Shown here: positions 17,888-18,221 of the stretch, in pieces
Numbering within the stretch: the stretch's first letter is position 1
How the letters are laid out: each line of letters begins with the position of its first letter
Assembly (NCBI GenBank): GCA_900770405.1
Contig: CAAGKL010000099.1
Span: forward strand, 1 to 51,167
Length of the DNA: 51,167 nucleotides
Source of the DNA: Clostridia bacterium
Lineage (GTDB): Bacteria > Bacillota > Clostridia > UBA1381
Direction: 5' to 3'
Translations under genes and position numbers: made by a program
Notes under the pieces: model-generated
What the model was told of the DNA's origin: nothing
The model's input: only the letters and a program-made list of their open reading frames with translations
The model's database searches: none

Positions 17888-17916
17888 TTGAAATGGGGGC
17901 GAAAATGCGCTATAAT
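17888..17916 (+). promoter_or_regulatory. sigma-A type promoter for the small-ORF transcript
   Basis: TTGAAA, 17-nt spacer, TATAAT. A second TTGACA at 17931 has a poor -10 (TAAGCT). Confidence 0.55.
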
Positions 17917-18026
17917 AGAATGAGATACGATTGACAAATTCGCGGATATGTGGTAAGCTTAATATGGTAGTCGGGACGCGGTGACTGTTCCGCACACCTC
18001 TGAATGAAGGAAAGGGGGTGTGTTTT

Positions 18027-18089
18027 ATGGAAGATTTGAGCATAATATTGTTTTTGATATTGCTTATAATTATTTACATAAAAAAATAG
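18027..18089 (+). CDS. 20-aa hydrophobic peptide MEDLSIILFLILLIIIYIKK (candidate type I toxin)
   Basis: ATG 8 nt after AAAGGGGG. A single TM-length hydrophobic core with a C-terminal KK. The SD is half-buried in an 8-bp stem (CACACCTC/GGGGGTGTG). The stop codon sits inside a hairpin shared with a convergent sRNA. The ORF is below the ORF-track size cutoff. Confidence 0.45.
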   Translation: MEDLSIILFLILLIIIYIKK

Positions 18090-18161
18090 TCACCCATTCT
18101 GCAGATGAGTGACTAAATAAGTAACCAATGCGGAACGTTCGCGCGTCCCCATTACCCCTTC
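18080..18161 (-). ncRNA. approx. 82-nt antisense sRNA (copy A; candidate type I antitoxin)
   Basis: Own promoter. Starts near GAAGGGGTAATGGGGACG. Hairpin GGGACG/CGTTCC, then an 11-bp terminator stem TAGTCACTCAT/ATGGGTGACTA followed by T7. Fully complementary to the 3' end of the small-ORF transcript. Confidence 0.5.
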
Positions 18162-18167
18162 AAGCTT

Positions 18168-18196
18168 ATAATAACATATAAAAGCGGATTTGTCAA
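18168..18196 (-). promoter_or_regulatory. sigma-A type promoter of sRNA copy A
   Basis: Minus strand: TTGACA, 17-nt spacer, TATTAT. The predicted start at the G of GAAGGGG is about 7 nt downstream. Confidence 0.6.
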
Positions 18197-18221
18197 CACA
18201 AATATAAGGTGTTGGCTTTTT
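18194..18221 (+). terminator. candidate intrinsic terminator of the small-ORF transcript
   Basis: CAACACaaatataagGTGTTG followed by GCTTTTTGCTTTG. It overlaps the sRNA -35. Confidence 0.4.

Follow-up and report, generated by a model that had tools for sequence, protein, structure and literature searches.

Type I toxin-antitoxin (TA) loci are described as an mRNA of 150-400 nt, encoding a peptide of 20-60 aa, together with an antisense RNA of 60-200 nt. Their mRNAs are marked by pairing of the Shine-Dalgarno (SD) sequence with an anti-SD and by a long-distance 5'-3' interaction, and in Gram-positive bacteria the antisense RNA is 3'-sided and overlaps the end of the open reading frame (ORF) (PMC8594479). 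In Clostridioides difficile, the type I families are without homology to other TA families, and near-identical paralogous antitoxin RNAs can cross-protect (PMC7699646). Here, a candidate locus of this class is reported from a 51,167-nt stretch of DNA (the window; contig CAAGKL010000099.1, positions 1 to 51,167 of the forward strand, assembly GCA_900770405.1) of Clostridia bacterium, lineage UBA1381. An example metagenome-assembled genome (MAG) of the same uncultured gut Clostridia lineage is GCA_934474455.1, and homologs at 70-73% identity carry the labels Clostridia or Oscillospiraceae. The locus is a cassette of about 320 bp between ung and a cell-wall hydrolase gene, in which a 20-codon hydrophobic ORF on the plus strand faces a convergent cis-antisense small RNA (sRNA) on the minus strand. 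Judged from sequence comparison and structure prediction, the cassette is a candidate new type I TA-like module, with a probability of roughly 50%. The core reading, a small hydrophobic ORF with a convergent cis-antisense sRNA, survived every in-silico test that was run and can be called partly supported. Sizes and geometry fit the published type I description (PMC8594479) point by point.

The closest described systems are TxpA/RatA and BsrG/SR4 of Bacillus subtilis, in which the convergent mRNA and sRNA likewise share a 3'-terminal overlap that takes in the ORF end (PMC8594479). They share with the cassette a hydrophobic peptide with a basic C-terminus, an SD occluded by mRNA structure, as predicted for the cassette, and the status of an accessory insertion. 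They differ in peptide length (20-22 aa in the cassette, against 59 aa for TxpA and 38 aa for BsrG), and neither sequence nor covariance-model similarity to the cassette was found. Unlike them, the cassette is built as an inverted duplication of the antitoxin gene, and its mRNA would be read from the promoter of a host gene. CD0977.1/RCd11 of C. difficile and its relatives are also from Clostridia, are convergent, and encode peptides with a hydrophobic N-terminus and a Lys-rich tail (PMC7699646). Those toxins are longer (34-47 aa) and lie on prophages or beside CRISPR arrays, whereas the cassette is chromosomal and sits in a hydrolase leader. No sequence similarity between the cassette and the C. 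difficile type I TA systems was detected by blastn against plasmids and phages or with Pfam and NCBIfam.

The intergenic gap (17787-18258, 472 bp) is flanked, according to Pfam matches, by the gene for a UDG-family uracil-DNA glycosylase (ung) and by that for an SLH/glucosaminidase protein, the cell-wall hydrolase (18259-19392, plus strand; PF01832 and PF00395). The first-pass annotation, which put the gap at 470 bp, had held that it is not empty, and every sequence feature named there was found where it had been placed. For the strain comparison, 40 locus sequences of the same species were used (about 36 distinct contigs). All 40 carry the cassette and 38 cover the peptide ORF. The ORF (18027-18089, plus strand) has 20 codons, as had been predicted, encodes MEDLSIILFLILLIIIYIKK, and starts at an ATG (18027) that follows the G-run of the SD by 8 nt. 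It was open in 38/38 sequences, with no frameshift and no nonsense mutation. Thirty of the 38 carried MEDLSIILFLILLIIIYIKK and two a 20-aa allele with F9I; four carried a strongly diverged 22-aa allele, MESIISLLLLIVIPEIIKYIKK, with an in-frame 6-nt insertion. Stop codon losses accounted for one sequence each (TAG to CAG, 29 aa; TAG to TTG, 30 aa).

The grand average of hydropathy (GRAVY) was 1.9 for the 20-aa and 1.3 for the 22-aa peptide. Shuffles that preserved dinucleotides were both open and at least as hydrophobic as observed at a rate of about 1e-4, for either of the two diverged alleles, and the remaining five frames were closed or non-hydrophobic. Because the ORF is open across strains, is kept with its SD and ATG in the diverged allele, and reaches about 1e-4 in the shuffles, it probably codes for a peptide of 20-22 aa. 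The small hydrophobic peptide ORF on a short mRNA that marks the type I class (about 20-60 aa) is accordingly present at the lower end of that range. A holin-endolysin reading of the ORF and the adjacent hydrolase was considered and rejected, as the hydrolase has its own signal peptide, the ORF product is missing from the closest related species, and known holins are far longer than 20 aa.

On the minus strand, a promoter, an RNA of about 82 nt and an 11-bp hairpin followed by T7 and containing the ORF stop codon had been proposed, and all three were recovered. The promoter (TTGACA-17-TATTAT, 18196-18168) matches the consensus at 11/12 positions, has an extended TG, and was invariant in 38/38 strain sequences covering it; by sequence it is much stronger than the plus-strand promoter. 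The hairpin lies at 18115-18087. The predicted RNA (terminator scan; fold z = -4.1) runs from about 18161 to 18080; its 5' tail is G-rich, and its paired elements are the stem P1 (GUAAY/RUUAC), the hairpin P2 (GGGACG-N6-CGUUCC) and the terminator hairpin with U7. Compensatory or wobble changes between copies affect P1, whose fifth pair varies among U-G, C-G and U-A, and the terminator, where a single A-U pair becomes G-C. Every copy retains the P2 pairing GGGACG/CGUUCC, in some alleles through G-U wobble. A covariance model (R1) was built from an alignment (A3) of eight sRNA alleles and run over the window with filters off; it matched the cassette sRNA at 18080-18165 (minus strand) with 104 bits.

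The sRNA is perfectly complementary to the plus-strand transcript over 18080-18161, which takes in the final 10 nt of the ORF together with the mRNA 3' region. At the sequence level it has its own promoter and terminator and falls within the 60-200 nt of type I antisense RNAs. The two genes converge as claimed, but the description of the sRNA as fully overlapping holds only if the plus-strand transcript passes 18161. This is likely, because no plus-strand terminator was found before a weak hairpin and U5 at 18194-18221. With an invariant promoter, a strong terminator and a free-standing paralog, the antisense sRNA looks real.

That paralog (copy 3; 22666-22793, plus strand) was found by motif search and by covariance-model match (R1, 22697-22784, plus strand, 113 bits), with a fold z = -4.3. 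ATGACA-17-TATTAT (22666-22694) serves as its promoter. The predicted RNA closely resembles the cassette sRNA, extends from about 22701 to 22793 and finishes in a strong terminator followed by U16. Convergent genes flank the copy, which is 4.6 kb from the cassette, and no peptide ORF stands opposite. The cross-protecting paralogous antitoxins of C. difficile offer an analogy. Eleven sequences were compared for the orphan copy, namely 10 strain loci from Hadza gut samples (L001-L010) and the window. Copy 3 was decayed in 5/11, through deletion of the -10 box in L001, L006 and L007 and replacement of the whole copy in L004 and L005, and the ORF-linked sRNA gene was always intact. On this comparison, the orphan copy is dispensable.

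Further variation was seen at the copy 3 site. The T-run of the terminator (22778-22793) ranges from 7 to 16 T among strains. In L001, L006 and L007, the TATTAT -10 box is taken by an 8-nt deletion, and the -35 box there is a perfect TTGACA. In two of the ten strains, L004 and L005 (window 22627-23100), copy 3 and about 300 bp downstream are swapped for about 450 bp of unrelated AT-rich sequence ending with a long perfect palindrome, GGCTGTTTAAAAAGTCAATTGACTTTTTAAACAGCC; this position is a site of cassette variation. A further TTGACAAATC box, resembling those at the heads of the cassette arms, lies 10 nt past the copy 3 terminator, and neither a -10 box nor an RNA could be recognised after it. 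At about 22810, after TTGACA (22805-22810), a 41-nt insertion/tandem-duplication polymorphism was present in L002, L003 and L010.

Upstream of the ORF, the predicted sigma-70-type promoter (TTGAAA-17-TATAAT, 17888-17916, plus strand) was recovered with 11/12 matching positions and a predicted start at about 17923, and was invariant in 34/34 strain sequences covering it. The scan gave 6 promoter-like sites in 2 kb against 1.2 +/- 1.0 in shuffles. The promoter is present, but it is not dedicated to a toxin. In the sister species, the closest relative available (Ung 91% identical; loci L015-L017), TTGAAT-17-TATAAT occupies the same alignment columns, the hydrolase ATG follows 38 nt downstream, and the cassette is missing. 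The promoter at 17888 is therefore the ancestral glucosaminidase promoter. The ung-hydrolase gap of the sister species is just 168 bp. Relative to it, the window carries an insert of about 320 bp (about 17917-18237) between the hydrolase promoter and the hydrolase SD, which leaves the hydrolase gene 342 nt 3' of the ancestral promoter. On this alignment, the cassette landed between the glucosaminidase gene and its ancestral promoter, and it is an accessory insertion, seen in one species only among the sequences searched. No target-site duplication was seen at the junctions when the window was compared with the sister species.

As a side observation on the same site, in a more distant relative (L019; Ung 81% identical) a YjbR-family gene (2158-2826) fills the ung-hydrolase gap. 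The intergenic site has taken different insertions in different lineages.

In the promoter scan, the site at 17888 was the sole strong promoter able to transcribe the peptide ORF, and no further plus-strand promoter-like site passed within 17917-18258. As no other such site precedes the hydrolase start, hydrolase transcription probably must cross the cassette, and for that reason the sRNA probably affects hydrolase expression as well. Obstacles on the way would probably be the hairpin over the SD, the convergent sRNA gene, and the weak hairpin with U5 at 18194-18221 (plus strand). The latter (CAACAC/GUGUUG, 9-nt loop, then GC and U5) was read from the sequence and appears as a small hairpin in the predicted fold; it is outside the terminator-scan criteria, and the sister species does not have it. 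The peptide mRNA may end here, or the hairpin may act as an attenuator ahead of the hydrolase gene. Sigma-D-like GCGGATAT motifs, picked out by eye as an alternative hydrolase promoter, were dropped as too weak.

The SD, AAAGGGGG, with its G-run at 18014-18018, had been called strong. The sequence and its spacing stand, but the G-run forms the 3' arm of a predicted 10-bp hairpin (17992-18023, plus strand; 17992-18001 pairing with 18014-18023), in which the anti-SD GCACACCUCU pairs with the G-run and the next bases, GGGGGUGUGU. The SD is therefore not free. In most alleles the hairpin is followed by UUUUAU, but the diverged L010-type allele has lost this U-run (GUGUGCGUAUGG), so that the conserved feature is a hairpin over the SD and not a terminator. 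A U-U mismatch is present in this hairpin in L001/L004-type alleles.

The cassette is also an inverted repeat (repeat finder, I1, I2 and I19). The left arm (17931-17995, plus strand) is the 5' UTR of the peptide mRNA. The right arm (18129-18196) holds the sRNA promoter and the sRNA 5' domain, and plus-strand RNA from it is complementary to the 5' UTR. The left arm is 76% identical to the reverse complement of the right arm and, by its sequence features, is a degenerate copy of the sRNA gene, with a TTGACA box followed by a GGGAC(G)/(C)GUUCC hairpin. It was matched weakly by the sRNA covariance model (17957-18028, plus strand; 13.4 bits, E=0.44). A CC-to-UU variant of the left arm keeps the hairpin via G-U pairs, on the plus strand only, and a 7-nt deletion removes the putative -10 box of the arm in about half of the strains. 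The core motif GGGACGCG-N-GTTCCGC occurs 3 times in the window, against 0 expected, the third time at 22713-22732. Because the sRNA gene is duplicated in inverted orientation within the cassette, the 5' UTR and the 3' region of the mRNA can pair, and for the full-length plus-strand RNA (17923-18226) the predicted fold is one long hairpin joining the 5' and 3' parts (-105 kcal/mol, z = -8). Both kinds of mRNA structure that limit translation in type I systems, SD/anti-SD pairing and a 5'-3' interaction, are thus predicted here, with U-U mismatches and with arms that vary independently.

Deletions in the left arm at 17921-17929 (9 nt) and 17952-17958 (7 nt) segregate independently, the 9-nt deletion being found alone in L059. 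Right-arm and ORF alleles are mosaic among strains, and the flanks of the cassette are nearly identical. The independent deletions and the mosaic alleles therefore point to frequent recombination inside the cassette of about 320 bp.

Taken together, the type I TA-like reading of the first-pass annotation is the best supported of those considered, for its architecture and for an ORF and sRNA that are kept across strains. It needs correction on the origin of the promoter and on a free SD, and the inverted-repeat build had been missed. In this reading, the promoter at 17888 would make the peptide mRNA, which would be translated poorly with its SD sequestered. The sRNA would pair with the 3' region of the mRNA, leading to cleavage of the duplex and/or an mRNA kept untranslatable, as in TxpA/RatA and BsrG/SR4. 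On depletion of the short-lived sRNA, the membrane-active peptide would be made.

Other type I systems resemble the cassette in part. Ibs/Sib of E. coli combines an extremely short hydrophobic toxin (18-19 aa) with a cis-antisense RNA; unlike in the cassette, Sib spans the whole ibs ORF, and the system is from Proteobacteria. As in hok/Sok and AapA/IsoA, the full-length mRNA is predicted to close by 5'/3' pairing, which keeps hok and aapA mRNAs translationally inert (PMC8594479). In the cassette, however, this pairing is a by-product of the 65-bp inverted duplication and shows no compensatory change, the antisense RNA is 3' of the ORF rather than 5', and peptide size and family differ. Fst/RNAII (par of pAD1) also has convergent RNAs with one common terminator hairpin and locus-defining repeats at the 5' ends, and in general type the N-terminus of the cassette peptide (M-E/K-D-L-S...) matches that of its toxin. 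Direct repeats in par give complementary 5' regions, whereas those of the cassette are inverted and therefore give 5' regions that are alike. The cassette further differs in that only the sRNA strand of its terminator carries a U-tract, and it has no Fst or Ldr match in Pfam.

Searches of 185,579 species genomes, of JGI metagenomes and viral contigs, and of plasmids and phages gave no homolog outside the species. An exact-pattern scan of the species genomes with GTAAYNGGGACGNNNNNNCGTTCYGC returned four chance matches, in high-GC Proteobacteria. The metagenomes were scanned with GGGACG-N6-CGTTC-N20-40-CAGAATGGG, which gave 36 matches, 35 of them chance or coding and one the same locus with the 22-aa allele (L056). 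About 12 of the chance matches (L022, L023, L025, L028 and others) fall in one conserved coding motif, ..WDDTAFF..EDDAQNG.., of a soil-bacterial enzyme family. As chance matches cluster in this motif, the sRNA pattern alone is not specific. The same kind of scan gave 0 matches in viral contigs, plasmids and phages yielded nothing when searched with the cassette by blastn, and R1 with filters off gave no further sRNA copies in the window and the sister-species loci. Rfam was searched with the window at gathering thresholds and with 17780-18270 at E<=10, and no family was reached in the region, those of known antitoxins and toxin mRNAs (SIB_RNA, BsrG, RatA, SR4, Fst/RNAII etc.) included. Matches to SIB_RNA (16.6 bits against a gathering threshold of 56, E=1) and to BsrG (RF01412; 11.9 bits against 55, E=1.9) were set aside as noise. 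Nothing exceeded the curated cut-offs when the peptide was searched against Pfam and NCBIfam (Fst, Ldr, Hok, Ibs, TisB, TxpA etc.). Sub-threshold matches were of the transmembrane-segment type (FtsL_2, 13.5 bits with a cut-off of 24.6; ComGC, 15.2 bits with a cut-off of 75).

Several of these results weigh against a toxin-antitoxin module. By the searches above, the cassette is outside every known toxin or antitoxin family in Rfam, Pfam and NCBIfam. A dedicated toxin promoter is missing and that of the hydrolase is in use. The Lys-Lys tail and the stop codon do not count as independent evidence for the peptide, because the T-run and stem of the sRNA terminator dictate them. In the 22-aa allele, Pro-Glu shortens the hydrophobic run to about 11 residues, and the stop codon was lost on two separate occasions. 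As the cassette is in one species only, evolutionary depth is small, with effectively two independent ORF alleles. Compensatory changes for the SD hairpin or the 5'-3' pairing were not found among the strain alleles, so both structures are predictions only, and left-arm and right-arm variants occurred in all combinations. The sRNA may also have a function of its own, because a stand-alone paralog exists. In a rival account, a species-specific sRNA family (two intact genes and a degenerate copy) is the functional unit, the inverted pair in the hydrolase leader is an antisense and attenuator device on the glucosaminidase, and the 20-aa ORF is fortuitous or tolerated in an AT-rich spacer between the two arms. 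It is favored by a left arm that is homologous to the sRNA gene, including the TTGACA box, and ends with a terminator-like hairpin and UUUUAU, and by a paralog with no ORF opposite. The position of the cassette exactly between hydrolase promoter and hydrolase SD, with no second plus-strand promoter, agrees with it, as do the forced KK tail and stop codon and the two stop-codon losses. As for a leader-peptide attenuator, the ORF is within the hydrolase leader, the hairpin at the stop codon has no plus-strand U-tract, an alternative pairing scheme is not evident, and the Ile/Leu-rich peptide has no obvious link to glucosaminidase. The sRNA account is opposed by an ORF that is open and strongly hydrophobic in two diverged alleles (about p = 1e-4 each), one of them with an in-frame indel, by conservation of the SD and ATG and not of the U-run behind the left hairpin, by the 7-nt deletion that strips the putative -10 box from the left arm in about half of the strains, and by the dispensable orphan copy. 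On balance it is unlikely, though it keeps some weight. A related view, the first reinterpretation drawn from the inverted repeat, took the ORF for a spurious frame between two convergent paralogous sRNA genes. It was downgraded in view of the same -10 box deletion, the allele that drops the U-run after the hairpin yet keeps SD and ATG, and the shuffle test passed by the ORF in both diverged alleles.

Many small hydrophobic bacterial proteins are regulators and not toxins. The ORF could accordingly encode a genuine small membrane protein without toxicity, such as one that modulates a membrane or cell-wall enzyme and is co-transcribed with the hydrolase, with the antisense RNA tuning its level. 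The ORF and sRNA evidence that speaks for a toxin applies equally here, and the ORF shares its transcription path with a Sec-exported glucosaminidase. The sister species, however, runs the same hydrolase without the peptide, and the combination of SD sequestration, a 3'-overlapping antisense RNA with a much stronger promoter, accessory insertion and an orphan paralog is a type I TA hallmark and not one of housekeeping small proteins (PMC8594479); a harmless regulator is decidedly unlikely. A miniature inverted-repeat transposable element (MITE), with terminal inverted repeats of about 65 bp and chance promoter and hairpin sequences, inserted into the hydrolase leader, would account for the inverted arms (17931-17995 and 18129-18196, 76% identical) and for an element that is in this species and missing from its sister. 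Of the MITE features (terminal inverted repeats, target-site duplication, many dispersed copies), inverted arms only were found. The junctions showed no target-site duplication, one full and one half copy are present in 51 kb, and further copies were not found in the genome, metagenome, viral, plasmid and phage collections searched. The "half" copy is moreover a complete promoter-RNA-terminator gene, and no transposase is nearby. Such an element is highly improbable.

The observations on structure and position could also be joined within the type I reading. The module would have arisen when its antitoxin gene was duplicated in inverted orientation, which would make the toxin mRNA carry a 5' UTR that mimics the antitoxin. 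The 3' region of the mRNA would toggle between pairing with the 5' UTR (closed, inert) and pairing with the sRNA or its orphan paralog, and this switch would couple toxin translation to autolysin expression, the coupling being suggested by the module's place in a peptidoglycan hydrolase leader. The full chain is a long shot. If toxicity holds true, the cassette would represent a new type I TA family in uncultured human-gut Clostridia, with a toxin among the shortest known. Its build would be unusual in that an antitoxin gene served as the source of the mRNA 5' UTR, and it would give a natural example of a TA-like cassette captured between a host gene and its promoter, rewiring the expression of a cell-wall hydrolase. 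Loci of this kind can be recovered by reading "empty" gaps without the help of annotation, in this case one species-restricted candidate.

Elsewhere in the window, two tandem skipping-rope RNAs (RF02924) were found on the plus strand at 50790-50887 and 50900-50980, with 45.2 and 61.6 bits, respectively, against a gathering threshold of 36.7.

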